A DNA stretch of 64,000 nucleotides from Vulcanimicrobiales bacterium (GCA_038231455.1 JBBRLI010000006.1:96001-160000); one strand, 5' to 3'; shown: positions 4,593 through 30,528, counted from the stretch's first letter. Notes: a model not told the origin generated them from the sequence alone. Numbers and translations: made by a program.

Positions 4593-4595
4593 TCG

Positions 4596-6608: not shown

Positions 6609-6751
6609 GGAGGCATCCTTTTGCGGCAAGAAAGTGATTGCTTCGTTCCCCTGAATCTAAAGTTTAAACACCTAGGGGGCGGTAGCCGCGTTTTTCGGCC
6701 CGGGCGCGAGCCAAACGCAAAAATGCGACGTGCCGATTCGTCGATCCAAAG

Positions 6752-7315: not shown

Positions 7316-7325
7316 CGGATTTACC

Positions 7326-7351
7326 CCGGACATTACGATGAATGTGTCCGG
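7326..7351. promoter_or_regulatory. Candidate TetR operator (inverted repeat)
   Basis: CCGGACA-N12-TGTCCGG between the divergent TetR and membrane-protein genes. Confidence 0.5.
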
Positions 7352-7438
7352 AAGCGGACAACCCATTCCTCACATTCTTGTTTCGCCGCAGAGACGCTGT
7401 TATCGTTTTCCCGAATCGCTAACGTCTGGAGACGAAGC

Positions 7439-8113: not shown

Positions 8114-8133
8114 GTCATCGACGTCGCTTTCGG

Positions 8134-14864: not shown

Positions 14865-14899
14865 AGTGCTACGTTCCTTAGCAGATGCGTTCAAAAAAA

Positions 14900-15877: not shown

Positions 15878-16304
15878 GGCGTGCCTCGGCGCGTTTGGCG
15901 GCTAAGAGCTTGGCAAATTCTTCGTAGCTCTCATCATCGTTTGCGAGTTCGCCCGCAATATGCGCGAGGAGCGGATTGCGCTGGCTTCTATAGAGAGGGC
16001 GAAGCACGTCGCCGATCACCGATGCTTGGAACGCTTCACGCGAAATCGCCGGGATAAACAGGTTCGCTCGCCCGGCCGACTTTTTGTTCAGGTGGAGCTT
16101 ATTTACGAGATTCTGCATGATCGTCTTGACCGTCGAATAGGCGAGCGTCTTACCCTCACCGGACTTCTCGATTTCGGTCATCACATCGCTGACGGCCATC
16201 CAATCGCCATATGCCCACATGATCTCGATCACGCGAGATTCGAGTGGGCCAAGGGCGCTGGCCGTATCGTCGGCGCCACCGATGCGGATCGTACGCAAAC
16301 TCAT
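15870..16304 (-). CDS. BlaI/MecI/CopY family repressor
   Basis: LGPLESRVIEIMW, LAYSTVKTIMQNL..K. Confidence 0.9.
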   Translation of the reverse strand: MSLRTIRIGGADDTASALGPLESRVIEIMWAYGDWMAVSDVMTEIEKSGEGKTLAYSTVKTIMQNLVNKLHLNKKSAGRANLFIPAISREAFQASVIGDVLRPLYRSQRNPLLAHIAGELANDDESYEEFAKLLAAKRAEARRA

Positions 16305-16378
16305 CTGCTAAGGACGCTAGCATATGCCTCGCAGCCGGTCAATCGGATATCATGCAGCGTACGTTCCGCAGTCCTGTA

Positions 16379-16421
16379 TTGACTTAATTGGATACAAGGC
16401 ATAGAATCGAAATATGTCGAT
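16379..16421 (+). promoter_or_regulatory. sigma70-type promoter with overlapping ArsR-type operator
   Basis: TTGACT(16379)-17 nt-TAGAAT(16402); palindrome ATCGA-N6-TCGAT at 16406-16421 spans the ATG. Confidence 0.7.
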
Positions 16422-16746
16422 ACAACGTTGTTGCCCGCCGGCCGTCGTCGATGACTCGGATCGCTCGGAGCAGTCCAGCCTTTTTAAGGCGCTCGGAGAT
16501 CCCCATCGCCTGGCCATGCTCGCGACGCTAGCGCGGACGGATGACGAGGTCTGCGTTTGCGACTTCACCAGCGCCTTGCCCTTAGAGCAACCGACGATAT
16601 CACACCACCTCCGATTGCTTCGCGACGCACGCTTGGTTACGTCCGAGCGACGCGGTACATGGGTGTACTATCGCCTGGCAAGCGATGCGTCTGAACGCAT
16701 TGACGCCGCACTACGCTCGGTACTTCCGCAGAAAGTTCTTGCATGA
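16414..16746 (+). CDS. arsR: ArsR/SmtB arsenic-responsive repressor
   Basis: FKALGDPHRL, EVCVCD metal box, QPTISHHL, N-terminal CC. Confidence 0.9.
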   Translation: MSIQRCCPPAVVDDSDRSEQSSLFKALGDPHRLAMLATLARTDDEVCVCDFTSALPLEQPTISHHLRLLRDARLVTSERRGTWVYYRLASDASERIDAALRSVLPQKVLA

Positions 16747-17144
16747 AGATGCATCTGAACCTCGCGACGCGCGACCTCGAAGGCAGCATCGCATTTTACT
16801 CAACGCTCTTTGCCGCCAAGCCGTCCAAGCAACTCCCCGATTACGCGCTCTTTATCACCGAGCACCCGGGACTCGAATTGGCGCTCGATCTCGACCTCGG
16901 CGCTCGAATCGGTGTCAGTGAGCATTTCGGTATCGTTGTCGATTCGCCGCACGAAGTCGATGCTCAGATCGAGCGATTGCGGAATGCCGGCTACGCAGTC
17001 GATATCGAACGTGGCGAGACGTGCTGCTATGCAAATCAAACGAAAGTTTGGGCGAGTGACCCGGAAGGGCGACGTTGGGAGACCTACTTCGTTCACGAAG
17101 AAACCGAGGCGCGCGACGACGATCAGACATCATGCTGCACCTAG
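16743..17144 (+). CDS. arsI: ArsI/CadI family VOC protein (putative C-As lyase)
   Basis: MHLNL, HFGI, TCCYA vicinal Cys pair, W..DPEG.RWE, C-terminal CC. Confidence 0.8.
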   Translation: MKMHLNLATRDLEGSIAFYSTLFAAKPSKQLPDYALFITEHPGLELALDLDLGARIGVSEHFGIVVDSPHEVDAQIERLRNAGYAVDIERGETCCYANQTKVWASDPEGRRWETYFVHEETEARDDDQTSCCT

Positions 17145-17163
17145 GTCTCGATTTGGAGAAGGT

Positions 17164-17880
17164 GTGAATTATCGCGCAGTCGCCGCCGAATTTTTTGGCT
17201 CGGTCTTCTTGCTCTTGGCCGTCGTCGGGTCGGGAATTATGGCGGAACGGCTTAGCGGCGGAAACGTCGGCGTCGCGCTCCTTGCGAACACCATCGCGAC
17301 CGGTGGAGCCCTCATCGCGCTTATTTTAGCTTTCGGACCCGTATCCGGCGCGCACTTCAATCCAGCCGTGACCCTGGCCGATGCGTGGCAACGCGGACTC
17401 GCTTGGTCGATGGTCATGCCGTATTTTATCGCTCAGATCGCTGGCGCAATACTTGGGACGGCGCTTGCGAACACGCTGTTCGGCCTGCCGGTTTTTTTTG
17501 CTTCGCACCACTCGCGCTCGGGCGCGGTCCTGCTCGTTAGTGAGTTCGTCGCGACCTTTGGGCTGCTCGCCGTCATCTGGGGCTGCGTACGCTCGCGCCC
17601 ATCGGTAACTCCGTTTGCCGTCGCCGCATATATCGTTGGGGCATACTGGTTCACGCCGTCCACCTCGTTCGCAAATCCCGCTGTGACGATCGCTCGTTCA
17701 CTCACCGATACGTTCGCGGGGATTCGGCCGCAAGATGCCCCGGGTTTTATCATCGTTCAGTTCGCCGGTGCAATCGCGGCGACCGCGCTCTTCGCCTGGC
17801 TAGCCCCGATCTCTTCGGCCACGGCAAAAGCCGTTGTCGTCCCACATTCGAAGGAGAGCCGTGAACTTGTCAGCCGCTAA
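17164..17880 (+). CDS. MIP/aquaporin family channel (AqpS-like, putative arsenite channel)
   Basis: SGAHFNPAVT and STSFANPAVT NPA motifs; inside ars operon; GTG 17164 with GGAG RBS. Confidence 0.88.
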   Translation: MNYRAVAAEFFGSVFLLLAVVGSGIMAERLSGGNVGVALLANTIATGGALIALILAFGPVSGAHFNPAVTLADAWQRGLAWSMVMPYFIAQIAGAILGTALANTLFGLPVFFASHHSRSGAVLLVSEFVATFGLLAVIWGCVRSRPSVTPFAVAAYIVGAYWFTPSTSFANPAVTIARSLTDTFAGIRPQDAPGFIIVQFAGAIAATALFAWLAPISSATAKAVVVPHSKESRELVSR

Positions 17881-18280
17881 CCAGACGCCATTCGTGTTGT
17901 TCGTTTGTCGGCACAACACCGGCCGTTCGCAGATGGCGGAAGCGTATCTGCGGCACTTCGCGGGCGATAAAATCGAAGTCGCCTCAGCGGGAACGATCGC
18001 CGCCGCGGTCCCCGATCCGCGCGTTGTCGCGATCATGGCGGAGGATGGTATCGATATCAGTGCTGCGCGGCCAAAACTGCTCGACGCGGAGAAAGCCAAG
18101 ATCGCCGATCGCATTATAACGATGGGTTGCGATGTTGAAGGCGTGCCTCGGATCGATGCAGATTGGGGTCTTGCCGATCCCAAAGGTCAGCCGCCTGAGG
18201 CCGTTCGCGAGATTCGGAACACGATCAAAGAAAAAGCCCGCGAGTTAGCGGCCGCCCTACTTGGAACGAACAAAGCTTAG
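17861..18280 (+). CDS. arsC: LMW-PTP-fold arsenate reductase
   Basis: VCRHNTGRSQMAE P-loop, ITMGC, W.L.DP; AAGGAG RBS before GTG 17861. Confidence 0.8.
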   Translation: MNLSAANQTPFVLFVCRHNTGRSQMAEAYLRHFAGDKIEVASAGTIAAAVPDPRVVAIMAEDGIDISAARPKLLDAEKAKIADRIITMGCDVEGVPRIDADWGLADPKGQPPEAVREIRNTIKEKARELAAALLGTNKA

Positions 18281-18330
18281 ACTCGGTGGGGTCTGCCCCG
18301 ACGCCGACTTGCAAGGACCGTGCATCACCT

Positions 18331-21300
18331 TTAAACGGTGATCGCCATTCCGCGATAAATACGCGAACGATAGCGACTGTCGTCGGCGGCGGGTAGTGGG
18401 CCGGATTCAAGGACGAGCGCGCGCGCGAAACGGTCGAGTTCTTCTTGTTGCTCGCTCGTATTACGCGGTTCTTCGCTTTGCACACGGCGCGTGACGTTGA
18501 TCTGATTGACCGGCACTTCATGCACGAGACGTTCGTTCTCGACGGCAATCGTTGCGGTAAGGGCGTGCAGTGTGGTCTTGATGAAATTCGCCAGCGCAAA
18601 TTCCACCGGGTTGCCGCCAAATGGAACGTCGGGGGAGACGAAGACCAGTCGCACGTCTTCGAGCAGTGACACCGTTCGTGCGACGCGAAAGTGATTGGTG
18701 ATATTCTCCTCGATCATCGCTTCGAATCCGGGTCCATCGAGAGCGTGATCGCCTTCGAAAAGCGCGTTCGGTAAGAGACCGAGCGGCATGGAGACGACAG
18801 CCGCCGGGTTCGGATATTCGCTCAGTGCGCGATCGAGCCCGGTCTCGAGGTCCGCGCCGATGACGATGTCGACGATGCGTTCCGCGATCGTCGATCCGAC
18901 GCGTTGACGGACGTGTTTTACTGCTTGTTGCGTGCACGTGATTAGCACCACGCGATCGACGCCGCACTCTTCGACATACGCACGGGCCGCGCGCACCATG
19001 TGTTCGATCGGATGCTCGCCGACGATCCAGACGTTTCGCCCGCGCAGTTGCGCCACGCGCTCGTCCTTCGAGCGACCGAAGAGTTCTCGCTCGGTAATCG
19101 AGCGTTCTTGGCGCAGACCGCCCGAGGGTTGAAACGTTTCGCCCGAGACGGCGCGATCGGCAAGGAAGTACACCGTCGCAAGCGCGACTTCGAGTTCGCT
19201 CGGCATATGCTGCAAATGCAGCATTTTTAGCACCCCCGACCGCACTTTTTCCGCTTCGCGTTCGACCTCGCGCGGTGCAAAGAATGGTTCGGCGGGACGT
19301 TGTGCGATGCCGCATTTGACGTCATCTGAGAGACGATGGCTGCGCTGCAAACGCTCGCAAAGCTTTCGTGAGATATCTTCGTCCATCAGCGCCGTAGCGA
19401 ATGATGAACCTTCGCTTGCGGCCGCCCCCTTCACGATTGCATCGCAGAGATTGCGCAGCGTCGCGGGCGTTGAAGGATCAGCGATGATCTCCGCAATGTC
19501 GTTCCGCATTGCCGCCTGCAGGAACAGATGCGTTTCGCCGCCCGTGCGCACGTGCGCGATCGCCGCGGCGTAGATTGCATTCAGTCTCTTTGCGGCTAAA
19601 ATCAGCTTGCCGCGGCGTTCGAAGAGACCCGGTCCGCCGCCCGTGCCGGCGAGACGGTCGCCCGCAACCGGTCCTGGGGCGATTGCGTTGATTTGAATTT
19701 CGGGACCGACGAATTGCGCGAGCGTCTCGACGATTGCGCGCTGCCCGGCTTTGGATACGGCATAGTCGCTTCGATTGGGATAGGCGACGGCAACGTATTT
19801 CTCTCCGCCGAAGTACGAGCTAACGTTAAGAATGTAGCCGCTGCCGCGCTTTTTCATCTCTGGAACGACGCGCGCCATCAGCGCAAAGTTCGAGATCAGG
19901 TTGGCTTTGAGCGTTCGGCGCCAGCTCTCGAGCGGCATATCGACGACCATTTGTTCGGCCCCCGCTATCCCGGCATTGTTAATGAGATAGTCGATCGAAC
20001 CGAACCGGGAAAGACCACGATCGATCGCAAGGGCGAGCGTCGCGTCGTCTGCGACATCGACGCCGTCGAGTGTTTCGATTCGCGCCGCGGCGTCGTCGTA
20101 GCCGATGGCCGTGAGTTCGCTAACGATATTCTTGCGCATCGTTGCGAGTTGATCCGCACGACGCGCAGCGATGATCACCCGCGCGCCCGCGATTGCCAGC
20201 AGTCGAGCGATCTGGCCGCCAATACCGGCGGAACCTCCCGTAATGAAGGCGACTTTGCCGCGATGGAGGCCGATGAGGCTCTCGCTTGCGCCAAACGTAG
20301 CGCGGGTCGCGCCCGTGCCTTCGCCAAGCGAATCGGGTAAGTACAGATTCACGGGCTTCGTGCGCCGGTTGGTGTAAAGAAGTTTCGCTGTCCACGCCGC
20401 TGCGAACCGCAGCCCTTCGTCTTCGGTATTCGTCCAGCGCACGATTTGATTTGACCAGTCGGCAAAGGGCCGTTTACCAGCCGACGCGTCGAGTTCCGAT
20501 TCGTCACGCCAAACGCGCACGAGCTGTTCTACCGCGGCGCGCCAGATATCGCCATAGACGTTGCCGCGACCGTCGTCTCCGTTCCCGAGAAAAACGACGC
20601 GCGGGTTAGCGCCGATGCGGGCGGTACTCCAATACCGTCCGAGTTCGCGCGCAATCACGATCGCGCCCACGATCTCGCCGTCCAAGAACGCGTCGACGTC
20701 CTCATCGCTGGCGTCGGCCAGCGGCTTGGTGAAATGCTTGGGACCGAACGCGGGCAAAATGACGGCGCCGTGCACGGCACCCGATGTGCGCCGCAACATC
20801 GTTGCGACCGCGTCGGGATCGCGCCGGTCGAGTGCGAGCGTGCGAATGTTGCGATCGAGTTCCAAGTCTCCGAGCTTCGAAGATGCGCTCGTGAGCGCCG
20901 CGTCGTTTGGGACGCTAAGCAAGACCGTAGCTCCGCATTCCGCGTGCGCTCGTGCAACGGCGATGCCGGCTTCGACATCTTCGCCTGAGACGACAAGCAC
21001 GGTACGTCCCGACGCATCGACGATGCGTAGACCGGGACGTGCGGTAAACGTGCTGCGACTTTCCTGTCGCACAAGCATGCCGTGCGTGATCTCGAAGTTG
21101 TGTCCGCTGATCGCGCCCGAATCGTCACTGCCGAGAAAAACCGTCGTGGATGCCACATCGCCAATCGTCGGAAACGGTGTGGCAGGAATGGCGTCCGTGC
21201 CGCCGTTCCGTGAGAGCGTCATCATATCGGTGATCTCGTTTGCCGTGGTGCCGGAAGGCGCGCTGCGGAGGGCGTCCATCGAAGCAAATACGCTATGGAT

Positions 21301-21966
21301 GCGCTCGCTCTCGATCGGGCCGGGAAAGACGGTATTCACGCGAATGCCGCGCTCGCCAAGTTCGTATGCCAGGCGCCGCGACCACGCATTGAGTGCAGCC
21401 TTTGGTACGACGTACCCCGCGCGTCCGAAATAGGCCGTGCGCGAAAAAATTGTGGAAATATTAATGATCGAGGCACCCGGCGCCAAATGTGGAGCTGCGG
21501 CGCGTACGACATTCCATGCCACGCCGAAAAGGTTTCGAGCGGCATCGCCGACCGTCTCGGTGTCGCTTGCACCACCCGCTCGCAGACGCTCGAGATCCGC
21601 GTTCGATATCGGCACGTTTTCGAGTTGTTGGCGTGGTCCGGCGGACCCGGCATTATTCACCAGGACGTCAATTCGGCCGAAGTGCTCGAGGATGCGTGCA
21701 ATACCCGCACGCGCTTGCACGGGATCGCCTGCGTCAAATGGGCTCACGAAGATGCGATCGGCATCAACGTCGGTCTCGGCGATCAGCTTGATTCGGGCGT
21801 TGGCAAGTTTGTCGCCGTCACGCCCGACCATGGCAATCCGTGCTCCCTCAGCAAGGTAACGGCGCGATATTTCGCCGCCAATATTGCCCGCGGCTCCCGT
21901 GATGACCGCGACCTTGCCCGCAAGTCGCAAAACGGGGAGAGACCGGACCGAGTCGACTGAAGCCAT
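18331..21966 (-). CDS. mcr: Bifunctional malonyl-CoA reductase (3-hydroxypropionate-forming), Chloroflexus type
   Basis: About 1210 aa tandem-SDR protein collinear with Chloroflexus Mcr as I recall it: RLAGKVAVITGAAGNIG, NNAGSAG, YVVPK, ESLIGLH.GKVAFITGGSAGIGGQI, SSYFGGEK..YPNRSDYAVSKAGQR, FALANFIKTTLHA, ends RIYRGMAITV; alternative start 21984. Confidence 0.93.
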   Translation of the reverse strand: MASVDSVRSLPVLRLAGKVAVITGAAGNIGGEISRRYLAEGARIAMVGRDGDKLANARIKLIAETDVDADRIFVSPFDAGDPVQARAGIARILEHFGRIDVLVNNAGSAGPRQQLENVPISNADLERLRAGGASDTETVGDAARNLFGVAWNVVRAAAPHLAPGASIINISTIFSRTAYFGRAGYVVPKAALNAWSRRLAYELGERGIRVNTVFPGPIESERIHSVFASMDALRSAPSGTTANEITDMMTLSRNGGTDAIPATPFPTIGDVASTTVFLGSDDSGAISGHNFEITHGMLVRQESRSTFTARPGLRIVDASGRTVLVVSGEDVEAGIAVARAHAECGATVLLSVPNDAALTSASSKLGDLELDRNIRTLALDRRDPDAVATMLRRTSGAVHGAVILPAFGPKHFTKPLADASDEDVDAFLDGEIVGAIVIARELGRYWSTARIGANPRVVFLGNGDDGRGNVYGDIWRAAVEQLVRVWRDESELDASAGKRPFADWSNQIVRWTNTEDEGLRFAAAWTAKLLYTNRRTKPVNLYLPDSLGEGTGATRATFGASESLIGLHRGKVAFITGGSAGIGGQIARLLAIAGARVIIAARRADQLATMRKNIVSELTAIGYDDAAARIETLDGVDVADDATLALAIDRGLSRFGSIDYLINNAGIAGAEQMVVDMPLESWRRTLKANLISNFALMARVVPEMKKRGSGYILNVSSYFGGEKYVAVAYPNRSDYAVSKAGQRAIVETLAQFVGPEIQINAIAPGPVAGDRLAGTGGGPGLFERRGKLILAAKRLNAIYAAAIAHVRTGGETHLFLQAAMRNDIAEIIADPSTPATLRNLCDAIVKGAAASEGSSFATALMDEDISRKLCERLQRSHRLSDDVKCGIAQRPAEPFFAPREVEREAEKVRSGVLKMLHLQHMPSELEVALATVYFLADRAVSGETFQPSGGLRQERSITERELFGRSKDERVAQLRGRNVWIVGEHPIEHMVRAARAYVEECGVDRVVLITCTQQAVKHVRQRVGSTIAERIVDIVIGADLETGLDRALSEYPNPAAVVSMPLGLLPNALFEGDHALDGPGFEAMIEENITNHFRVARTVSLLEDVRLVFVSPDVPFGGNPVEFALANFIKTTLHALTATIAVENERLVHEVPVNQINVTRRVQSEEPRNTSEQQEELDRFARALVLESGPLPAADDSRYRSRIYRGMAITV

Positions 21967-22020
21967 CCTGAACGTGATCCCCACAAGAGAAGAAGCCGTT
22001 GGTCGCCAGAAGCCCCCTTA

Positions 22021-22060
22021 TAATACCCAACCATTGATGAATAGCAACCCATCCAATGGT
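22021..22060 (-). promoter_or_regulatory. Putative mcr promoter with overlapping inverted repeat
   Basis: Minus strand TTGCTA-16 nt-TATTAT; ACCATTG-N17-CAATGGT at 22030-22060. Confidence 0.5.
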
Positions 22061-22179
22061 AGAATCTTTGGCGGGGTCTGCCTGAACCGGAAAAAATCTT
22101 CCGGGGGAGGACGCCTGTCGGTAGCCGGGCGAGTCGGGCTGCCGGATACCGAGAACCGAATAGACATCAACGGCGCCCG

Positions 22180-24702
22180 CTACGGGAGATGTAGACGGAT
22201 CGCGTGCCAGACGAGGCCCGGCTCGTACCGGTGGGTCACGACGCCCGTCTCGTGATCCATGGCGTAGAGTCGTAGCCAGCGATTATCGACCAGGTTGCGG
22301 ACCGAATCGTGCTTCGCGATAACGGCATCCATCGCGGCCGTTGGAGCAGCGATGATCACATTGAGACGTTGCGGCTCGTGCATGAACCGCTCCCCATCGT
22401 GCACCGATTGCCAGGGAAGCCCAACCCGAAGATCGCCAGCGTTCCCTTCGAGCACCCCAAGACACCCGGTGACGTTGTGTAAGACCTTATTGCCGGCGCC
22501 GAAGAGTCGATTGTTCACGACCGAACCGTAATATTGAAGATTGATCCAGCTTGCAACGACCATCGGCGCCACCATGATCAGTTCGAGGACGCCGCGGGTC
22601 GTGTCGAGATCGAAGCGGTAATCGTGCAAAAAGGCGCGGCCTTCGAAATCGATGCCGCGCGTGAACTCACGCGGCGCGGCGATGAATGCCGCGTTGTTTG
22701 CCAGTGCCCATTCGGGCCGCACTTGCGCCCAATCGCGGCTACGCACCAGCACGCGACGGTCCGTGTTCTCATCGACCGGGATACCCATGAGCGGCGCGCG
22801 TTCGCGCCGCGTGATCGCGCTCGAGGTTCGAAGCCACCCGTGAACGTCGGTAATTAGCGGGCGATGCGAGCTTGGCAACCGATCCTCATCGTAGATCGTA
22901 ATTTCATCGGTCGTTGTGTCGTGCAGGCAGCCTAGGAACCATGTATCATCTGGAATATCGATTCCGCGGCTACGCAGGCCGACGCGAACACCCGGATCGT
23001 TGCAGATGTCCGCTGCCACGCGCGCGTTGGCCTCGCCGGTATGCCCGCCACATGCTCCGCAATCGAGTCCCGATGCGTGCGGGTTGTTGACGGTCGTGCT
23101 ACCGTGACCGACCATCATGACCAGCGGCGCGAAGTTTCCTTTCATTGACATCGCGCCGAGCACGGCTTCCGCCATGTCGATCTTTTTTTCATCGGTAAAT
23201 CCGGTCGGGCTTCCGCCATCGTTACGCGCCTCGATTTCGGGACCGAGCTTTTGAATCGTCGTCGCGTCAAGACCGTCCGTATTGGGGTCGGTGGTCGGTC
23301 GCGTGAGTGCAAGGCTATCGGTCAGAATTTTACCCGCGAACAAGATGCCGCCGGTTTTGACGAAAATGAACGATGAAACAGCCGAGAGTTTAAACGACTT
23401 CCAGGCCTTATACGCGCGTCGTCGCAAGAGCCGCAGACCGAGGATCTCGGCGTTATCATCGCGCGAGACGCTTTGAACGACTTGTCGTACCGTAAATGCG
23501 GGCGTGAGCAGGACGGGACACTGCGCACCTCCGCGCAGGTGTCCGATCGGCACGTACTCGATCGGGTAGCCAAAGAAACCCGCAAATCCAATCGTTTGCA
23601 CACCCGGCGCTACGCTCTCTAAGGCCCGCCGGTACACTTCGGAACGAACGTCGATGCAGAAAGCCGCTTGCAACTGCGGGCGCGCAGCAACTGCAACGAC
23701 GGCGGGGGATCCGAGCTTCGCGAGAAGCCGCCGCTCGTACGCCGCCTCGTATGCTTCTTGCGCAAGAATATCGATGCTCAGTTCGGGATCATCCCCGAGT
23801 CGCTCGTCCAGCGGAATTGAGGCAGCGTCGTGCATCGCGCGCTCCCAAGCAGAACGGAATTCCGTATCGGAGCGTTGCATGAAAAGCGCGTATCCCCAAA
23901 CCACGCGGATCGCGAGCAACTGAACCAGTGCATCGTTGGTGCCGCCGTAGAGTTCGCTCTCCCAGACGAGATACCGCGCGTACGATGCCCAACCCGCGAT
24001 GTCGAGGAGCGTTTGATGCAAGTACTCGACGAGTGCACGCGGTGGGACGCCGAGCTTCTCGACGACTTCCGCGATAGCTGCGACGGGATCAGCCGGCATG
24101 CTTGCCACGATCCGGCGGAAGCCGGCGATGCCCATGACTTCGGGATTGCGATCGTACTGCATTGCTGCGCGCCACGCGGCAAACGGTCGTAGTTCGCGCT
24201 CGGGTAATTGCCAGACCGTCTGTCCTTCATCAAAATACGCCGCGCTGAATCGTGAAATCTCATCGATCATGAACGCGGTGCCCGAGACCTGGCGATTGCC
24301 CTCGGCGAGCGCGTCGATGATCTCCGCGACACTAGCGACGTGCGCGGGGTGCTTTCTGCGTGCACCTTCCTCCAGCGCGAGCGACTCTTTGAATTCCGCT
24401 ACCGTCTTGGGTGCCTGCCATTCGTGCGGCGCAGCGAAGAGCGCCGTCGCGATATCGGCGTCTTCGATTCGTCCGCTCGCGAGCGCTTCGCGGTAGAACG
24501 AGCGCGGCATCAGCATATCGGCACGCGCCACCCGGTACATCGTGGCGCACGTCGCGTGAAAGCTTTGGTGCGTGAATCCAAGAAATGGATTGACGGCGAC
24601 AAAGTGTTTGAGCGGCCAGAGCGGCGCAATGCGATTGCAGGCTTGTGCGATCACCGATTCGAGATCGATTGTCTTGAGCGTTTCGGGAACGTTGAGGGTC
24701 AT
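22180..24702 (-). CDS. dabA: DabA (DUF2309) beta-carbonic-anhydrase-like subunit of DAB inorganic carbon pump
   Basis: APLWPLKHFVAVNPF, FCIDVRSE, GFAGFFG, GHGS, LDCGACGG (Cys/Asp/His/Cys Zn-site residues present), RPEWAL. Confidence 0.95.
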   Translation of the reverse strand: MTLNVPETLKTIDLESVIAQACNRIAPLWPLKHFVAVNPFLGFTHQSFHATCATMYRVARADMLMPRSFYREALASGRIEDADIATALFAAPHEWQAPKTVAEFKESLALEEGARRKHPAHVASVAEIIDALAEGNRQVSGTAFMIDEISRFSAAYFDEGQTVWQLPERELRPFAAWRAAMQYDRNPEVMGIAGFRRIVASMPADPVAAIAEVVEKLGVPPRALVEYLHQTLLDIAGWASYARYLVWESELYGGTNDALVQLLAIRVVWGYALFMQRSDTEFRSAWERAMHDAASIPLDERLGDDPELSIDILAQEAYEAAYERRLLAKLGSPAVVAVAARPQLQAAFCIDVRSEVYRRALESVAPGVQTIGFAGFFGYPIEYVPIGHLRGGAQCPVLLTPAFTVRQVVQSVSRDDNAEILGLRLLRRRAYKAWKSFKLSAVSSFIFVKTGGILFAGKILTDSLALTRPTTDPNTDGLDATTIQKLGPEIEARNDGGSPTGFTDEKKIDMAEAVLGAMSMKGNFAPLVMMVGHGSTTVNNPHASGLDCGACGGHTGEANARVAADICNDPGVRVGLRSRGIDIPDDTWFLGCLHDTTTDEITIYDEDRLPSSHRPLITDVHGWLRTSSAITRRERAPLMGIPVDENTDRRVLVRSRDWAQVRPEWALANNAAFIAAPREFTRGIDFEGRAFLHDYRFDLDTTRGVLELIMVAPMVVASWINLQYYGSVVNNRLFGAGNKVLHNVTGCLGVLEGNAGDLRVGLPWQSVHDGERFMHEPQRLNVIIAAPTAAMDAVIAKHDSVRNLVDNRWLRLYAMDHETGVVTHRYEPGLVWHAIRLHLP

Positions 24703-24705
24703 TTG

Positions 24706-26316
24706 CTACAACGGCCTCGCGGTGGATGAGAGCGGTTTTGGCGCGGGCGCCGGCCAGAGGCGCACGACGATACGGTTCGCTAGCGTGTTGACATACAGGC
24801 CGTTTGCAACGTGGGCATACATCGCGCGCCATCGGGGCGAAGTAAAGCGGCCCGGCACCCAGTTTTGCAAAAACACGATAACGGCAAAGGCCACGATGAC
24901 CGCTCCGACCAGGGCGATGTCGAGCGGGCCGCGGGCAGGCGCCGCCGGCACCGCGCCGGCAAGCAGAAATTCCATCGTGTACTGGAGGCCAAAATACGCC
25001 GCTGCGATCGCGATGGCCGTCAGCACGGTCCGGCCGACAACGTAGAAGTTGGGCCGGTTTTCAATGCTGCGCGCGAGCAGGTGGACGATGCTGAGCAGCA
25101 GCGTTGCGCCGAGCGCGAACACGCCCGGCTTTTCGGCGATGTCCGCGCCGAAGAGGCGCCCGACGATCGCGACCGCAGCAATGACCATGATGATGACGAA
25201 AATCAAACGCCCCGCGTTCGGTTTGCCTTCGGGCTTTGGCGTGTACGAAGCGCGGGAGATGTCGATCACGCTACCCGAGGATAAGAACGCGTGTGCTTTG
25301 TAGCATGAGTGCGCGACGATGTGCAGGAGCGCTGCGGGAAACGCTCCGATTCCGCACTCGAAGAGCATAAATCCCATCTGCGCCACCGTCGAGTACGCGA
25401 GTGTCACCTTGATGGAACTCTGGGTTAGCATCACCACCGAGCCAAAGAGCGCGGTGAAGCCGCCCACGATGACCAGCGTGTCGAGCGCAGGCAGCGAGAG
25501 CACGATTAAACCGGCAAAGCGCAAGACAAGAAAACCACCGGCATTGATGATGCCGGCGTGCAGCAGCGAAGAAACGGGTGTCGGCGTTTCCATCACTTCG
25601 ATCAGCCAACCGTGTGTCGGGAATTGGGCCGAGGTGAGCAGTGCCGCTAGCACCAGCAACATCGCGGCAACCGAGATGCCGCCGGGCACCGTTGCACCGT
25701 GCAACGCGGCGACGCCGGCGAATACCACACCGTAATCGAGGCTCCCGAAATTGAAGTAGATGAGCACGGCGGCTGCGACGATGCACGTCTCAGCAAGCCG
25801 GCTGACAATAAACTTCTTGCGTCCGGCGAGCACGGCTGCGGGACGGCCGGGATAGAACAAGAGTAATTGCTGCAGGCAGAGCGCCGTCGCGATCCAGGCG
25901 AAGGCGAGCAGCGCTACGTTTCCGGCAATAATTGCGATCAGAATCGAGGCGAGCGTGAGGCAGAGGAATCGCGTGAAACGTACATGCGCCGGATCGCCGT
26001 CGAGGTAGTTCTTGCTGTACAGCGTGACGATGACGCCGACGAAAGCAACGAGGCAATACATCGTGGCGCTAAGCGAGTCGAGGTAGAGTGCCAAGCCGAC
26101 CCCATTCGCACCGAGTGTCTCGGTGTGGAGCGGCCCCTTCGCAACAACCGCGACCGCCGCCGAAACGGCGGTAAGTAGCGCGACGCCGGCGGCCGCAATC
26201 GCGAGCCGATTATACCGTACGGCGGCGCGCAATTTCCGTTCTCCGGGTAGCAGTCCGACCAAGAGCAAACCAATTGGCCCCGCAGCGGCCAGCCACAAGC
26301 TATTCACCCAAGTCAA
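24706..26316 (-). CDS. dabB: DabB NuoL/MrpA-like membrane subunit of DAB pump
   Basis: SAQFPTHGWLIEVMETPTPVSSLLHAGIINAGG, LAYSTVAQMGFM, HSCYKAHAFL; 3 bp from dabA. Confidence 0.93.
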   Translation of the reverse strand: MTWVNSLWLAAAGPIGLLLVGLLPGERKLRAAVRYNRLAIAAAGVALLTAVSAAVAVVAKGPLHTETLGANGVGLALYLDSLSATMYCLVAFVGVIVTLYSKNYLDGDPAHVRFTRFLCLTLASILIAIIAGNVALLAFAWIATALCLQQLLLFYPGRPAAVLAGRKKFIVSRLAETCIVAAAVLIYFNFGSLDYGVVFAGVAALHGATVPGGISVAAMLLVLAALLTSAQFPTHGWLIEVMETPTPVSSLLHAGIINAGGFLVLRFAGLIVLSLPALDTLVIVGGFTALFGSVVMLTQSSIKVTLAYSTVAQMGFMLFECGIGAFPAALLHIVAHSCYKAHAFLSSGSVIDISRASYTPKPEGKPNAGRLIFVIIMVIAAVAIVGRLFGADIAEKPGVFALGATLLLSIVHLLARSIENRPNFYVVGRTVLTAIAIAAAYFGLQYTMEFLLAGAVPAAPARGPLDIALVGAVIVAFAVIVFLQNWVPGRFTSPRWRAMYAHVANGLYVNTLANRIVVRLWPAPAPKPLSSTARPL

Positions 26317-26435
26317 CGTACGCCACGCCTTTCGTTTAAAACACTCGTGATGGAGTTAATCAAAGCGAGGCCGCCTAAAAGGGAGGCGACGATCACTCGA
26401 ACGAGCCCTGCAGGGACTGGACACACGAATCGCAT

Positions 26436-26467
26436 AACATGAACTCTATTGCATGTTTTGATACCAT
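26436..26467. promoter_or_regulatory. Candidate operator and extended -10 between dabB and its divergent regulator
   Basis: AACATG-N10-CATGTT (26436-26457); TGaTACCAT ending 6 nt before GTG 26474. Confidence 0.5.
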
Positions 26468-26473
26468 AGTCGC

Positions 26474-26782
26474 GTGAGTGTCGTCAAGAAGCGCGCCGTC
26501 GGATCCGAGGCGCGAACCGGCTGGACGTTTTTGACCAATCACGCGCATGTCTTGATCGCGCTTACGCGCGACCCGTTAGCGCGTGTTCGAGACCTCGCGC
26601 TCTCGGTTGGCATCACCGAGCGAGCGATTTTGCAAATCCTTTCCGACCTCGAAGCGGGCGGCGTGATCGAGCGCCTGCGCGAGGGCCGCCGGAACACCTA
26701 CCGGATCAATAAAGAGGTCCGTTTGCGACACCCGCTCGAGTCCAACCACCGAATCGATGAGCTTCTGACGCTCGCGCGATAA
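26474..26782 (+). CDS. Winged-helix (MarR/ArsR-like) transcriptional regulator
   Basis: WTFLTNHAHVL, VGITERA..IL.DL, R.GRRN.Y, LRHPLE. Confidence 0.88.
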   Translation: MSVVKKRAVGSEARTGWTFLTNHAHVLIALTRDPLARVRDLALSVGITERAILQILSDLEAGGVIERLREGRRNTYRINKEVRLRHPLESNHRIDELLTLAR

Positions 26783-26942
26783 GCCGCATCGCGAATGGCG
26801 AGGCAAATCCAGAACCGGTTCGCTCACTGATGTAAATCGCGGCTTCGCCATATTCTGATTCAGGCGCAGCACGTCGGTGTCGGCAGCTTCCTGAGTTCAT
26901 TTGTCGCGTCGCTCGATGGCGGCTCCGCGGTGGACACAACAC

Positions 26943-27005
26943 TTGCCCTGGGGAGGCCCGAGGGCGTATAGTGGGTGAAAGTGGTGTCTAGTGGGAGCTA
27001 GTGGG
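26943..27005 (+). promoter_or_regulatory. dcw promoter and MraZ-binding direct repeats
   Basis: TTGCCC-18 nt-TATAGT; four AGTGG repeats with exact 10-bp period at 26970, 26980, 26990, 27000. Confidence 0.85.
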
Positions 27006-27013
27006 GATATTTT

Positions 27014-27460
27014 TTGGCCGCCGATCGACCGCTCTTTACCGGGTCAGTCGAACACAGCCTTGACGACAAGGGTCGCCTCGTCGTGCCCGCCCGCTTCCGC
27101 GAACGCCTCGGCGCCGGCTTCTTCTTAACGATCGCCGAGCCCGACCCGTGCCTCGCCCTCTACCCGGCCCCGACGTGGGCCGAGTTCTGCGCCAAGCTCG
27201 AAGCCGCGCCGACTAAGGACGCGCGCTACCGGAGCTTCGTCCGGCACGTCTTCGCGAATACGGAAGAACTCTCGTGCGATAACCAGGGACGCCTCGTCAT
27301 CCCCGGTCATCTGCGTGCCCACGCGAAAATCGAAAAAGACGTTGTCTCCGTTGGTTCGCTCACGCGTATCGAAGTCTGGGGTCGCGAACGCTATAAAGAG
27401 CAAGCCAAGGCTGCGGCGACGGAGTTGTTCGACTTCGCCACCGAGCTTGGGCTGTATTAG
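27014..27460 (+). CDS. mraZ: Transcriptional regulator MraZ
   Basis: LDDKGRLVVPARFR and CDNQGRLVIP repeats. Confidence 0.95.
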   Translation: MAADRPLFTGSVEHSLDDKGRLVVPARFRERLGAGFFLTIAEPDPCLALYPAPTWAEFCAKLEAAPTKDARYRSFVRHVFANTEELSCDNQGRLVIPGHLRAHAKIEKDVVSVGSLTRIEVWGRERYKEQAKAAATELFDFATELGLY

Positions 27461-27463
27461 TGC

Positions 27464-28345
27464 GTGGGGCACGTCTCCGTATTGCCCGCCGAGTCAATCG
27501 CGGCGCTTGCTCTCGTCCCGGACGGCACGTATGTCGATGCGACGTTCGGAGCGGGCGGTCATACGGCGTTGATGCTCGCGGCACTCTCGCCCGCGGGGCG
27601 GATCGTTGCCTTCGATGCGGATCCCGACGCGCGCGAGCGCGATCTGCGGGACCCGCGCGTGACGCTCGTGCATGCAAACTTTCGCGCGTTGCGCTCGGAA
27701 TTGGAAGCGCGTGGGATCTCACAGATCGATGGGATTCTCTACGACTTGGGGACGAGTTCGATGCAACTCGATAGCGCCGATCGCGGCTTCTCGTTTCGCG
27801 AAGACGCGCCGCTCGATATGCGCATGGATCCGACGCAAGGCGAATCGGTCGCCGAACTTCTTGCCGAGCGCGAAGAAAAAGAAATCGCCGACATCATCTT
27901 TGAATTCGGCGACGAACGCGCAGCGCGCCGCATCGCGCGCGCGATCGTCCAGAAGCGTACGATTGGCCGCGTGCCGACGACGACGGGAGAACTCGCTTCG
28001 CTCGTCTCGGGCGTCGTGCATCAAGCGGGCAAGCGCGAACGCACGCATCCCGCAACGCGCACCTTTCAGGCGCTCCGTATTGCGGTCAACGACGAACTCG
28101 GCGCGTTACGCGACTCGCTCGATGCAGCGATGGGCGTCGTGAAACCCGATGGTCGGATCGCCGTCATCAGCTTTCACTCCCTCGAAGACCGCATCGTGAA
28201 GACGACCTTCCGTGACGATCCGCGCGTCGCGCGGGTGACGCGCAAACCGATCGTGCCCACAGGTGAAGAAACCGCCGCCAATCCCCGTTCGCGTAGCGCG
28301 AAGCTCCGCGTTGCCGCCGTTCTTGCTCAGGAGTCCGACGCATGA
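27464..28345 (+). CDS. rsmH: 16S rRNA m4C1402 methyltransferase
   Basis: DATFGAGGHT, DLGTSSMQLD, PLDMRM, FHSLEDR, NPRSRSAKLR. Confidence 0.97.
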   Translation: MGHVSVLPAESIAALALVPDGTYVDATFGAGGHTALMLAALSPAGRIVAFDADPDARERDLRDPRVTLVHANFRALRSELEARGISQIDGILYDLGTSSMQLDSADRGFSFREDAPLDMRMDPTQGESVAELLAEREEKEIADIIFEFGDERAARRIARAIVQKRTIGRVPTTTGELASLVSGVVHQAGKRERTHPATRTFQALRIAVNDELGALRDSLDAAMGVVKPDGRIAVISFHSLEDRIVKTTFRDDPRVARVTRKPIVPTGEETAANPRSRSAKLRVAAVLAQESDA

Positions 28346-28776
28346 TTGCCCCGCAGCGAGTTCCCCAATACGAGATCCCGCGTTCGCGCGAACGCGCAAA
28401 ACAGGCTACCCGCCGACGGTCGACGCGCGCCAAAGCGCGTGCGTACGTCGGTCTTGGGCGTATCGCGGTTGCCGTCGGCCTCATCGTCGTTCCGCTCATG
28501 GTGTATGTGATGCTCACGGCGAACCTCACGGGCATGCACTATGCGGTCGCGCGCGCGGAGACGCAGCGTACGACGCTCACGGATGAAACGCAGCGCCTCG
28601 ACGATAAAATTGCGCAGCTCGAATCGCGCGAACGCCTCTCGGCCGTCGCCGCAAAACTCCATATGCACGATCCGCGCGAGTACGCGGTCGTCGCCTTACC
28701 GAATCCCGCCGCGAAGCCGAAACCCAAAGGCATTGCGTTTCTCGGGAGCATGGGCGACTGGTTCAGTCGGCAGTAG
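28342..28776 (+). CDS. ftsL: FtsL-like cell division protein
   Basis: Basic N-terminus, one TM, coiled coil; canonical position between rsmH and PBP. Confidence 0.7.
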   Translation: MIAPQRVPQYEIPRSRERAKQATRRRSTRAKARAYVGLGRIAVAVGLIVVPLMVYVMLTANLTGMHYAVARAETQRTTLTDETQRLDDKIAQLESRERLSAVAAKLHMHDPREYAVVALPNPAAKPKPKGIAFLGSMGDWFSRQ

Positions 28777-30528
28777 GTGGCCGCACGTTCGTTTTCGCGC
28801 GTCGCTCCCGGGCGCGCGAAGATCACGTTCTACGCGATCGTCGGGATCGCGCTTTTTCTTTCTTGGCGGCTCTATGACGTCCAGATCCGTCAAGGTCCGC
28901 ATTTAGCGGCGATCGCCCAAAGCCAGCGTTCCGATACGGTCGAACTCTTTGCCAAGCGCGGCACCATCACCGATCGCGAGGGCAACGTGCTCGTGCGCTC
29001 GATGCCCTCCGAGAGCGTCTCCGCCGTCCCGACGAATATCGTCGATCCGCTCAAGACCGCAACGGAACTCGCGCCGATCCTCGGCATGAAAGCGCACGAT
29101 ATCGAGCTTGCGCTGCGCGATCGTTCGCAGTTCCGCTGGCTAGCGCGAAAAATCTCGCACGACGTCGCGCTTCGCGTCGCCGCGCTCAATGTTACCGGTA
29201 TCGCGATCGTTCGGGAAGAGACGGGCACGCGCTTTACGCCTGCCGGTCATCTCGCATCGACCGTGCTTGGCTTTGTCGGCGTCGATGAATCCGGGCTCGA
29301 GGGGCTCGAGTCGGCATTCGATACGTATCTGAGAGGCACGACCGGAAAGATGAAAATCGAGGCCGATCAGTTCGGCCGTGCGATTCCATTTGCCGAGACG
29401 CGGATCATCGAAAAAGCGCACCCCGGTCGCCACATCCAACTCGCGCTCGATTCGTACTTGCAGTTCGCAACGGAACGCGCGCTGCGCGACCGCGTGCACG
29501 AATCGCACGCGCGCAGCGGCACGGCGATCGTCATGGATCCGAACACGGGCGAGATTCTCGCGCTTGCAAACGCGCCCGATTACGAGCCCGCGCACTTCTA
29601 CCGCTTTTCGGCCGACGCCAGGCGCGACCGCGCAGTGATGGATGCCTACGAGCCGGGTTCGACGTTTAAATTGATAACGGCGGCCGCCGCGCTCGAGTCG
29701 CACCATATCGGACCCAATGCCATGTTTCCAGCGCTCGATTCGCTTGAAGTCGGCGGCCGGGTCATTCACAATGCCGAGGACGGCCTGATGGCGGGCGGCG
29801 GCGGAAGCGAATCGCTCGAGCAGATCATCGCGCTCTCGCACAATGTCGGCGCGGCCGAGATCGGCATCGCGACAGGTCCGCGCGATCTTTATAAAACGAT
29901 CCGCGCGTTTGGCTTCGGCGACCCCACCAACATCGAACTTCCCGGTGAAAATCCGGGCATCGTGCCGCCGCCCGATCAGTGGAGCGGCAGCTCCACCGCG
30001 ACGATTTCGTTTGGCCATGGGATCTCGACGACGCCGATCGCGCTCGTGCGCGCGTATGCCGCAATCGCCAACGGCGGTTTGCTGCTGCGCCCGCGTATCG
30101 TACACGCACTCATCGGTGAAGACGGCGCCCCGTTCTTCACCTACCCAACGGAAATCGAACACCGCGCGATCTCTGTGCAGACCGCGGCGACCTTGCGCCG
30201 CTATCTCCGGGCCGTCGTCATGCGCGGCACCGGGAAAGACAACGCGCAAATTCCCGGGTATACGACGGCTGGGAAAACCGGCACCGCGCAAGTGGTCGAA
30301 AACGGACGCTACGAACCGGGCGAATACATCGCCTCGTTTATCGGGTATGTCCCGGCGGAACGTCCGAAGTTCGTGATTTTTGTGAAGATCGAGCGGCCGC
30401 GCGGCGTGTACTACGGCGGCACGGTCGCAGCACCGGTGTTCGCGCAACTCGCGCGCATTGCAATGCTGCATGCGGGCGTCTTGCCGACGGCGGCGGCAAA
30501 ATCGCGGCTCGCGGCGAAAGCGCCGTAA
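28777..30528 (+). CDS. ftsI: Class B penicillin-binding protein (FtsI/SpoVD-like)
   Basis: RGTITDR, EPGSTFK (SxxK), SHN (SxN), KTGTAQ. Confidence 0.92.
   Translation: MAARSFSRVAPGRAKITFYAIVGIALFLSWRLYDVQIRQGPHLAAIAQSQRSDTVELFAKRGTITDREGNVLVRSMPSESVSAVPTNIVDPLKTATELAPILGMKAHDIELALRDRSQFRWLARKISHDVALRVAALNVTGIAIVREETGTRFTPAGHLASTVLGFVGVDESGLEGLESAFDTYLRGTTGKMKIEADQFGRAIPFAETRIIEKAHPGRHIQLALDSYLQFATERALRDRVHESHARSGTAIVMDPNTGEILALANAPDYEPAHFYRFSADARRDRAVMDAYEPGSTFKLITAAAALESHHIGPNAMFPALDSLEVGGRVIHNAEDGLMAGGGGSESLEQIIALSHNVGAAEIGIATGPRDLYKTIRAFGFGDPTNIELPGENPGIVPPPDQWSGSSTATISFGHGISTTPIALVRAYAAIANGGLLLRPRIVHALIGEDGAPFFTYPTEIEHRAISVQTAATLRRYLRAVVMRGTGKDNAQIPGYTTAGKTGTAQVVENGRYEPGEYIASFIGYVPAERPKFVIFVKIERPRGVYYGGTVAAPVFAQLARIAMLHAGVLPTAAAKSRLAAKAP

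Follow-up and report, generated by a model that had tools for sequence, protein, structure and literature searches.

The window analyzed in this work, i.e., a stretch of 64,000 nucleotides of the genome under study (hereinafter G000, a metagenome bin of 106 contigs that is 93.7% complete), harbors a gene for a winged-helix regulator (ArsR/MarR-like) on the plus strand (26474-26782; 102 aa; HTH_24, 23.5 bits, plus DUF7343). Divergently from it, the minus strand carries dabB (24706-26316; 536 aa; Proton_antipo_M, 122.7 bits; Proton_antipo_N, 39.9 bits; NF006029, 383.5 bits), coding for the membrane (NuoL/Mrp-type) subunit of a DAB pump, dabA (22180-24702; 840 aa; PF10070, 889.5 bits), coding for the cytoplasmic beta-carbonic-anhydrase-like subunit, and, beyond an intergenic gap of 213 nt (21967-22179), mcr, coding for a bifunctional malonyl-CoA reductase (from 18331 to the ATG at 21966 or to the GTG at 21984). 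A preliminary description of this DNA had assigned the four genes and their arrangement in the same way; all of them lie where it placed them, and the spacing of about 210 bp that it gave between dabA and mcr corresponds to the 213 nt separating the ATG at 21966 from the dabA stop at 22180. An arsenic-resistance-like operon (arsR, a glyoxalase-fold protein, a MIP channel and a LMW phosphatase/ArsC-type protein; HTH_5, Glyoxalase, LMWPc and MIP matches) occupies positions 16414-18280 on the plus strand; it is convergent on mcr and is a neighbor, outside the module that had been proposed.

Given that G000 is a metagenome bin of many contigs, the dabA-mcr junction might in principle derive from a mis-assembly or mis-binning that joined the DNA of two organisms, a possibility that we consider extremely remote. 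Indeed, a 19,190-nt Logan contig covers positions 16000-28000 with 0 differences and a flat depth of ~15x, and thus the junction is not a binning or scaffolding artefact; this contig comes from a different assembler but from the only run holding the locus, which is maybe the window's own source, and does not represent independent data. Moreover, the GC content is even throughout the region, and the sequences on either side, namely the dcw cluster and C6:80766-92059, find their counterparts in the sister species of the same genus (G001) at 83-86%.

The regulator gene is separated from dabB by 157 nt and was counted as part of the dab cassette, since it accompanies dabBA in G001 too (74% nucleotide identity); its match to HTH_metalloreg (ArsR/SmtB-like) is under the cut-off (26 bits). 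A second dab operon, on contig C16, is also preceded by a similar wHTH gene. The end of dabB is located 4 nt upstream of the dabA start, so that DabA has the adjoining NuoL/Mrp-type partner typical of DABs. DabA spans positions 1-747 of the 747 of the PF10070 profile and aligns with the solved DabA2 structure 9rd0 (E = 1e-185). Its residues C349, D351, H533 and C548 align with C351, D353, H524 and C539 of Halothiobacillus neapolitanus DabA2, and therefore the Type II beta-CA-like zinc site is complete; the zinc-site role of these residues, with the mutational evidence for it, is described in the original DAB preprint (10.1101/476713). As inferred from family homology, the pump would use a cation gradient to hydrate CO2 vectorially, yielding HCO3- in the cytosol. 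The cassette thus resembles the known DAB/DAC/MpsAB pumps, such as H. neapolitanus DabA2B2, in its two-gene dabB-dabA unit, in the full-length PF10070 domain with the four zinc-site residues and in the adjoining NuoL-like DabB. It differs from DabA2B2 in lying outside a carboxysome/RuBisCO locus, in a genome where no shell gene was found, in having its own small wHTH regulator and in occupying different sites in two congeners.

As for mcr, the ORF opens at the GTG at 21984 (1217 aa), whereas the in-frame ATG at 21966, yielding ~1211 aa, agrees with the N-termini of Mcr homologues. Over residues 18-1217 the protein aligns with two full-length malonyl-CoA reductases of known structure, 8hi4 and 8hjw (E = 0), and it also matches the separate domain structures 6k8v (N-terminal, the alcohol-forming half) and 6k8s (C-terminal, the aldehyde-forming half), with two SDR domains; because both solved halves align, the protein has the single-chain, two-half architecture of Mcr. 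It shares this ~1200-aa organization with the Mcr of Chloroflexus/Roseiflexus (8hjw, 8hi4) and with those of the proteobacterial and Gemmatimonadota pcs-mcr systems, with 48-58% identity over the full length; unlike those systems, no pcs was found in the G000 genome and the host encodes the Calvin cycle. All the invariant columns of an 18-sequence alignment are retained, although the list of columns was built relative to the G000 protein and the retention is by construction. They include T29/G30/G36, Y191/K195, T582-G589 and Y741, plus the near-invariant K745 (numbering of the G000 protein), positions that we take to be the nucleotide-binding glycine-rich motifs and the catalytic Y-x-x-x-K motifs of the two SDR halves. 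The enzyme is predicted to reduce malonyl-CoA to 3-hydroxypropionate (3-HP) using NADPH.

The gene is rare. It was detected in 3/348 genomes of the family (G000 included), in one other of 400 genomes of the phylum and in none of 60 relatives (0/60). In a quick tree the G000 sequence falls in an 11-row clade (SH-aLRT 100) together with the genes of two family genomes (G191 and G403) and of locus L127; in these other three contexts mcr is monocistronic and surrounded by unrelated genes, with neither pcs nor dab beside it. Elsewhere, pcs lies directly upstream of mcr in 6/10, 51/52 and 25/25 of the loci having the flank, the exceptions being four Chloroflexaceae loci and L127, so that outside the Chloroflexaceae the pair occurs in 82 of 83 such loci. 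The preliminary description had called for a search for propionyl-CoA synthase, the fused ligase-hydratase-reductase of ~1850 aa. No pcs was found by a genome search in G000, G191, G403 and G001; in G000, tblastn with three Pcs sequences retrieved only partial matches of 27-41% to generic Acs/ECH genes, and Pcs is not among the five longest ORFs. The only gene able to serve a 3-HP route was a generic YhdH/AcuI-type reductase.

The lack of pcs in G000 and the rare and patchy distribution of mcr in the family might suggest that the gene is a decaying or silent leftover of a transferred pcs-mcr operon, devoid of any present function. We deem this very improbable. Indeed, the ORF is intact (~1211 aa) and retains the invariant columns, including both nucleotide-binding and both Y-x-x-x-K motifs, and the orphan clade comprises full-length genes from at least three genera, with identities of 59-90%, a pattern that speaks for purifying selection on mcr. 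The gene would rather represent a monocistronic "orphan", and the small clade of Eremiobacterota to which it belongs would have lost the pcs-mcr operon that is usual elsewhere.

In the dabA-mcr gap, a sigma-70-like motif (TTGCTA-16-TATTAT, 22047-22020) scores 9/12, and the four promoter-like sites of the gap region compare with 3.3 expected from shuffles, a weak signal. The terminator-like match at 22182-22168, which overlaps the dabA stop, is also weak (six pairs, three of them G-C), and such matches are not in excess (13 vs. 12.2 in shuffles); no Rfam match was found in the gap, and its fold z-score is -0.16. Since the two genes lie on the same strand and no convincing terminator separates them, transcription may run on from dabA into mcr. 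The dabB-dabA pair and mcr might be co-expressed. If so, the HCO3- would feed acetyl-CoA carboxylase, and Mcr would pull malonyl-CoA to 3-HP as a light-/NADPH-driven electron and carbon sink; otherwise, 3-HP would be converted into propionyl-CoA via a stand-alone Acs-like ligase, an enoyl-CoA hydratase and AcuI, and then processed by PCC and methylmalonyl-CoA mutase. In our opinion such a coupling is possible but rather unlikely; besides the weak promoter-like motif in the gap, the monocistronic state of mcr in its other three contexts speaks against it.

The comparison with G001 is also at odds with this coupling. The homology between G000 and G001 is limited to positions 22207-26230 and 26423-26781 of the window, ending at 22207, ~27 nt inside the 3' end of dabA; that is, the boundary falls exactly at the end of dabA, and the regulator, dabB and dabA form a discrete 4.6-kb cassette that would represent a self-contained and movable unit. 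In G001, whose DabA is 87-88% identical and which lacks mcr, the cassette is found at another site, with a SpoIIE-type phosphatase gene on one side and a bioB-like gene on the other; the G000 orthologues of these two genes are directly contiguous (C5:162190-162195). At the site of the window, contig C16 of G001 matches contig C6 of G000 up to position 92059 and the match resumes at window position 26942 (C6:122942), so that the matching flanks enclose ~31 kb in G000 and ~3.8 kb in G001. This variable region also holds an RND efflux system, a BlaI/BlaR-like pair and the ars-like operon.

The conservation of the dab-mcr synteny, which the preliminary description had proposed to survey, is not supported either. 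Apart from the different location of the G001 cassette, the two other Mcr-positive genomes of the family have no dab near mcr; dabA is close to mcr in 1/119 other mcr loci, and mcr lies beside dabA in 0/12 other dabA loci of the family, as judged by contig. On these counts (1/119 and 0/12), dabBA-mcr is not a conserved gene order. Looking at whole genomes, DAB occurs in two of the three Mcr-positive genomes of the family vs. 14/348 overall (the remaining one, G403, has a completeness of only 68%), and G191 (94% complete) harbors DAB and Mcr without any RuBisCO match at E <= 1e-60; both findings favor the coupling of the two activities, even though these are very small numbers from mutually related genomes. 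At the level of the family, DAB goes with RuBisCO. At the same threshold (E <= 1e-60), RuBisCO is found in 8/14 DAB-positive genomes vs. 47/348 overall; in G255 dabBA is embedded in a cbbL-CsoS2-CsoSCA (alpha-carboxysome) locus, and in G377 a dab copy lies ~7 kb from cbbL. The DabA of the window is 68% identical to the nearest family copies, including those of G255 and G377.

The single case of proximity is that of Novosphingobium acidiphilum DSM 19966 (L009), where a LysR gene is divergent from dabB-dabA-PII-x, which is in turn convergent on pcs-mcr. The two loci share a dabB-dabA operon adjoining mcr, and no RuBisCO was found in the N. acidiphilum genome. They differ in that the N. acidiphilum units converge and are separated by ~1.4 kb, mcr is accompanied by pcs, a LysR and a PII-like gene replace the wHTH regulator of G000, and the DabA is only ~33% identical to that of the window. 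The independent appearance of the pairing in a RuBisCO-less sphingomonad favors coupling, since roughly 0.05 loci would be expected by chance in ~1.3 Mb of flanking sequence, a figure that we infer rather than one obtained by a computed test; however, the pairing is absent from 25/25 relatives of the same family.

The metabolic context is that of a phototroph. G000 encodes pufLM, form I RuBisCO, cbbR, PRK and glpX; the last four indicate that the Calvin cycle is encoded, and a full 3-HP bicycle is therefore unsupported. The full 3-HP route previously suggested does not agree with this finding or with the failure to find pcs, and G000, which the names of its homologues assign to the Eremiobacterota, would be a phototroph encoding the Calvin cycle and not the bicycle. 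Conversely, the idea of a pump operating without a carboxysome fits the data, as no BMC shell gene (PF00936) was matched in G000 or G001 (0 matches); thus, the classic RuBisCO-carboxysome role is not the whole story in this genus, a point which also favors coupling. ACC, the source of the substrate of Mcr, uses HCO3-. Among six Carboxyl_trans matches in G000, one is a complete gene (643 bits) and one is split across contig ends; besides the accA/accD-like matches there are two large acyl-CoA carboxyltransferase genes, so that HCO3--dependent acetyl-/propionyl-CoA carboxylases are available, although they are housekeeping and not pathway-specific. Together with a YhdH/AcuI-family match (349 bits; cut-off 297) and three methylmalonyl-CoA-mutase-family genes, they provide candidate downstream enzymes for the coupled route; however, all belong to generic housekeeping families, and the same Acs and ECH matches occur in the Mcr-negative G001.

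On the whole, we suggest that dab and mcr are probably two ordinary units lying side by side in a ~31-kb lineage-specific variable region, that is, accessory genes that accreted without forming a dedicated module; the carbon-concentrating 3-HP module initially envisaged is only weakly supported. Of the three outcomes that the preliminary description had named as speaking against its module, two, i.e., an adjacency not shared by relatives and a missing pcs, were observed or nearly so. Since no carboxysome shell gene was found, the most likely role of the pump, judging from the gene content, would be to raise the general cytosolic bicarbonate pool. This pool would serve biotin carboxylases (ACC and PCC-type enzymes) and would also reach RuBisCO through slow or CA-aided dehydration, ACC followed by Mcr being one possible consumer among several. 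We note that the observations counting against accretion are the possible read-through from dabA into mcr, the occurrence of DAB in two of the three Mcr-positive genomes with the RuBisCO-less G191 among them, the N. acidiphilum pairing and the lack of a shell gene in G000/G001.

The idea of a functional link between DAB and hydroxypropionate chemistry is not new in itself. A 2024 minireview (PMC10880623) ties DAB ("DAC") to the use of HCO3- by the hydroxypropionate bicycle, reporting two HP-bicycle Chloroflexota with finished genomes that possess DAC and SbtA and no CA, which is in line with the coupling of pump and Mcr, and the original preprint (10.1101/476713) connects DABs with biotin carboxylases. 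The claim that the pairing had not been described stands insofar as our literature search found no paper naming both "malonyl-CoA reductase" and "DabA"; it does not extend to the bicarbonate link between DAB and hydroxypropionate, which the minireview had already made. G000 resembles the bicycle organisms of that minireview in combining a DAB-type pump, Mcr and HCO3--using carboxylases in one genome. Those organisms have the complete bicycle, and what connects pump and Mcr is their co-occurrence in two finished Chloroflexota genomes; G000 does not encode the bicycle, and the connection consists in the physical adjacency in one genome.

A bolder scenario, which we regard as doubtful, is that in this carboxysome-less Calvin-cycle phototroph the bicarbonate supplied by DAB is channelled via acetyl-CoA carboxylase and the orphan Mcr to 3-HP, as a redox/carbon sink or as the entry to a non-canonical, pcs-free route to propionyl-CoA, and that the pairing arose twice independently, in the Eremiobacterota and in an acidophilic sphingomonad. 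If this idea was correct, it would suggest that supplying bicarbonate to 3-HP chemistry has been selected for repeatedly in settings where most of the inorganic carbon pool is CO2.

The locus consists of a predicted DAB CO2-to-bicarbonate pump and a bifunctional malonyl-CoA reductase gene (mcr), and its gene map as drawn in the preliminary description was reproduced exactly by the ORF list and the family scans. The pump is encoded on the minus strand by dabB (24706-26316, Proton_antipo_M and Proton_antipo_N domains) and dabA (22180-24702, covering the entire PF10070 profile at 889.5 bits), while a winged-helix regulator of 102 aa (26474-26782, plus strand) lies divergent from dabB with 157 nt between them. 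DabA matched structure 9rd0, that of H. neapolitanus DabA2, with E = 1e-185, and in the alignment its zinc site is complete (4/4 residues), C349, D351, H533 and C548 corresponding to C351, D353, H524 and C539 of DabA2, the residues named in the available part of 10.1101/476713. The mcr ORF (18331-21984, minus strand, 1217 aa) is composed of two SDR halves; it aligned from residue 18 to the C-terminal end with the structures of full-length malonyl-CoA reductases, 8hi4 and 8hjw (E = 0), also matches the separately solved N- and C-domain structures, and retains all the columns that are invariant among 18 aligned Mcr sequences. A start at the in-frame ATG at 21966 agrees with the N-termini of Mcr homologues, leaving 213 nt up to the dabA stop. 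The database entry for this protein (P0001) has 1166 aa, and its start (region 21832-21984, minus strand), which would fall past the first glycine-rich nucleotide-binding motif, was probably called too far downstream, since the ATG at 21966 agrees with the homologues. Roughly 1100 Mcr homologues were found; the Mcr homologue P0002 and the DabA homologue P0122, both at 90-91%, would represent a close, unbinned relative. A binning or scaffolding artefact is excluded, since a 19,190-nt contig from a second assembler covers 16000-28000 with 0 differences, although it derives from the sole sequencing run listed for this stretch, a DNA and not an RNA run and possibly the genome's own source, and so does not represent independent data.

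The juxtaposition had been proposed to represent a carbon-concentrating module for 3-hydroxypropionate (3-HP) chemistry. Such an adjacency is not conserved in relatives, being absent from the sister species G001, from the other mcr loci of the family and from 25/25 relatives of Novosphingobium acidiphilum. The genus has one further genome, G001, in which dabA is 87-88% identical and occurs without mcr; nucleotide homology around the cassette between G001 and the genome of the window (G000) is limited to 22207-26230 and 26423-26781, that is, to regulator-dabB-dabA, and stops about 27 nt short of the 3' end of dabA. The G001 cassette (locus L094, G001:C1:40000-59999, at 12698-17252) is flanked by a SpoIIE-type phosphatase gene on one side and a bioB-like (radical-SAM/BATS) gene on the other, and neither a transposase nor flanking repeats were seen there. 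In G000, the orthologues of these two genes are immediate neighbours (C5:162190-162195), the site between them being empty; therefore, the cassette occupies different sites in the two congeners. On this genomic comparison, regulator-dabB-dabA behaves as a movable unit of 4.6 kb. As a side observation, a class I/II aminotransferase (bioF-like) gene comes next after the bioB-like one in L094, and the placement of a predicted bicarbonate pump next to genes for biotin synthesis is suggestive, HCO3- being a substrate of biotin carboxylases.

The surroundings of mcr are also variable. About 31 kb upstream of mraZ, including the left part of the window, are absent from G001, whose contig C16 matches G000:C6 up to 92059 and resumes at C6:122942, the interval in G001 being only about 3.8 kb. 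This stretch embeds, at 9802-16304 on the minus strand, an AcrB-type RND efflux pump of 1056 aa with a long adaptor (685 aa), after which come an M56 BlaR1-like peptidase and a BlaI-type repressor, and it also contains a TetR regulator, a solute-binding protein and dehydrogenases. Convergent on mcr there is an arsenic-resistance-like operon (16414-18280, plus strand) coding for ArsR, a glyoxalase-fold protein, an AqpS-like MIP channel and an ArsC-type LMW phosphatase; the idea that the MIP channel might serve as a CO2 or 3-HP channel was rejected because it belongs to this operon. Directly past the dab regulator begins a plus-strand run of division and cell-wall genes (27014-43907, with MraZ, RsmH and MurE identified), 86% identical to G001:C16 across 26942-31900. 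No tRNA was found in 1-30000, a search of 15500-27500 for flanking repeats, direct or inverted, gave nothing convincing, and the ORFs scanned in 275-18280 include neither an integrase nor a transposase.

The dabA-mcr gap itself carries a sigma-70-like motif, the motif evidence being no better than in shuffled sequences. No convincing terminator was found in it (one weak match overlaps the dabA stop, and the count in the region does not exceed that of shuffles), its RNA fold is not unusual (z = -0.16 vs shuffles), and an Rfam search of 16000-27600 gave nothing near the gap, the sole match being a sub-threshold isrQ inside mcr. Since the conserved unit is regulator-dabB-dabA with mcr outside it, mcr is solitary elsewhere in the phylum and the gap contains no known RNA element, we favour, with some confidence, the interpretation that two ordinary units were brought together in a variable region. 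Overall, the evidence points to coincidental neighbours rather than to a functional pairing.

The distribution of mcr was surveyed in 119 other loci (12 + 80 + 25, plus those of G191 and G403, the other two Mcr-positive genomes of the family), with about 1.3 Mb of flanking sequence. In a first scan of genome contigs, 12/80 kept loci were true mcr, a single generic SDR motif being too unspecific, and the survey was repeated on metagenome contigs using a C-terminal Mcr alignment. In other phyla, a propionyl-CoA synthase gene (pcs) encoding about 1850 aa immediately precedes mcr in the same orientation; AMP-binding, ECH and ADH_zinc_N domains were confirmed in one of these ORFs. Counting only loci that include the mcr N-terminus plus 600 nt or more of upstream sequence, this arrangement was found in 6/10 assembled-genome loci (the four exceptions being Chloroflexaceae), in 51/52 metagenome loci (the exception being L127) and in all 25 loci from the N. 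acidiphilum family.

The search for pcs in G000 (3.71 Mb, 106 contigs, 93.7% complete), which the preliminary description had suggested, did not reveal this gene: a tblastn with three Pcs queries retrieved only partial matches of 27-41% to ordinary acyl-CoA synthetases and enoyl-CoA hydratases, the reductase part was unmatched, and Pcs is not among the five longest ORFs. Genome searches likewise did not find pcs in G191, G403 or the Mcr-negative G001. G000 possesses a YhdH/AcuI-family gene (349 bits vs a curated cut-off of 297), three methylmalonyl-CoA-mutase-family genes and two large acyl-CoA carboxyltransferase genes in addition to accA/accD-like matches; judging from these genes, all of generic families, a pcs-free 3-HP route may be conceivable.

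Within Eremiobacterota, mcr was detected in 0/60 relatives, in one other of 400 genomes sampled phylum-wide, and in 3/348 family genomes, G000 included. The G191 copy (66% identity) is located mid-contig on C4 among DprA, ketopantoate-reductase-like, esterase and GST genes, and its dabA is on another contig, C3; the G403 copy (59% identity), on a contig of 7 kb, adjoins a Kup potassium transporter gene, and the search of G403 for dabA gave no match. The metagenome copy of L127 (62% identity) has neither pcs nor dab within its 9.7 kb. According to a quick ML tree, these orphan mcr genes, i.e., those without an adjoining pcs, form one clade (11 rows, SH-aLRT 100) sitting inside the pcs-linked bacterial Mcr, apart from the Chloroflexaceae sequences. 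The clade is rare in Eremiobacterota and appears to be unreported within the literature searched, since the sole paper joining Eremiobacterota and malonyl-CoA reductase concerns, by its listing, a Chloroflexi isolate. In the G191 locus (L208, G191:C4:66000-85900, at 10934-17618), mcr lies about 2 kb from the ketopantoate-reductase-like (PanE/ApbA) gene, and a role of malonate semialdehyde as a precursor of beta-alanine and pantothenate in this genome is a speculation.

Among the 119 loci, dabA was close to mcr only in Novosphingobium acidiphilum DSM 19966 (L009, 4468-19907), where a LysR gene is divergent from a dabB-dabA-PII-like-unknown cluster that converges on a pcs-mcr operon; this genome gave no RuBisCO match, and the arrangement is absent from the 25 mcr loci of the same family, one of which has an Mcr 85% identical. 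This second juxtaposition, in an unrelated, acidophile-named sphingomonad, lends some weight to a reduced form of the original idea, according to which the pump feeds ACC and ACC feeds Mcr. We infer a rough chance expectation of about 0.05 such loci, taking roughly 15% of genomes to carry DAB and each locus to have about 11 kb of flank. The otherwise rare DAB is, moreover, present in 2/3 Mcr-positive family genomes, one of which (G191) lacks RuBisCO, and G000 has no carboxysome. The counts speaking for coupling are small and the genomes mutually related. We regard this possibility as rather unlikely, the assembly of two ordinary units remaining our preferred interpretation.

The affiliation of the window is reflected in its MurE, whose named homologues belong to Candidatus Eremiobacterota, including Vulcanimicrobium alpinum (61% identity), Ca. 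Elarobacter, Velthaea and Tumulicola. G000 encodes pufL and pufM as well as a form I-type RuBisCO large subunit (459.6 bits), located on contig C27, as are phosphoribulokinase, a glpX-type FBPase and, in divergent orientation, a LysR (CbbR-like) gene. These genes represent the pattern of a Calvin-cycle phototroph previously described for Eremiobacterota, which are reported, in the available part of PMC6664022, to be without the 3-HP bicycle. A beta-carbonic anhydrase profile gave one partial match in G000, to a 164-aa ORF, over positions 2-66 of 156 only. In the same genome, an ORF of 1980 aa (L103, G000:C5:112403-118342, minus strand) codes for a class II ribonucleotide reductase with an intein that includes a LAGLIDADG endonuclease domain.

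In the family, DabA was found in 14/348 genomes and RuBisCO, at E <= 1e-60, in 47/348, a tally that takes in the unpublished genomes G009 and G288 (a separate 17/61 tally takes in G009 and G059). Both occur in eight genomes (G000, G001, G377, G307, G018, G096, G255 and G025); the DAB-positive G023 has a RuBisCO fragment at a contig edge, and five DAB-positive genomes (G127, G123, G191, G159 and G265) are without RuBisCO. An alpha-carboxysome-type locus of G255 (L227, G255:C60:1-20000, at 5338-17209) contains cbbL, CsoS2 and CsoSCA with dabB-dabA a few kb downstream, and in G377 dabA and cbbL are about 7 kb apart. The DabA of the window is 68% identical to the copies of G255, G377, G307 and G096 and 59% to that of G191. 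No BMC shell genes were found in G000 or G001; thus, the predicted pump of this genus works without a carboxysome, which fits the role proposed for the DABs of heterotrophs in the available part of 10.1101/476713, i.e., the supply of bicarbonate to biotin carboxylases. G000 harbors a second dab operon (L095, G000:C16:53000-72000, at 9297-18261) with its own wHTH gene ahead; the DabA of this operon (905 aa) shares 43% identity with that of the window's first operon, and the DabB has 502 aa. The neighbours of the second operon, a GntR regulator, a 3-hydroxyisobutyrate-dehydrogenase-family gene and a 587-aa TPP enzyme, could represent a glyoxylate/tartronate-semialdehyde route.

Concerning novelty, no publication joining malonyl-CoA reductase and DabA was found, and none on such a dab-mcr locus appeared by title or abstract among the matches listed, but the concept has already been published: in the available part of a 2024 minireview (PMC10880623), the two finished genomes of hydroxypropionate-bicycle organisms are described as having DAC (as DAB is named there) and SbtA and no CA, its section 7, in that part, giving no example of HP-pathway co-location. 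The genes of the window add new members to known families. Were the pairing functional, it would offer a ready-made design for engineered 3-HP production and would represent the first gene-level link of DAB to a carbon route that depends on bicarbonate and does not involve RuBisCO. Three settings of DAB are found in this phylum: within alpha-carboxysome loci, in Calvin-cycle phototrophs that lack a carboxysome, and in genomes without RuBisCO.
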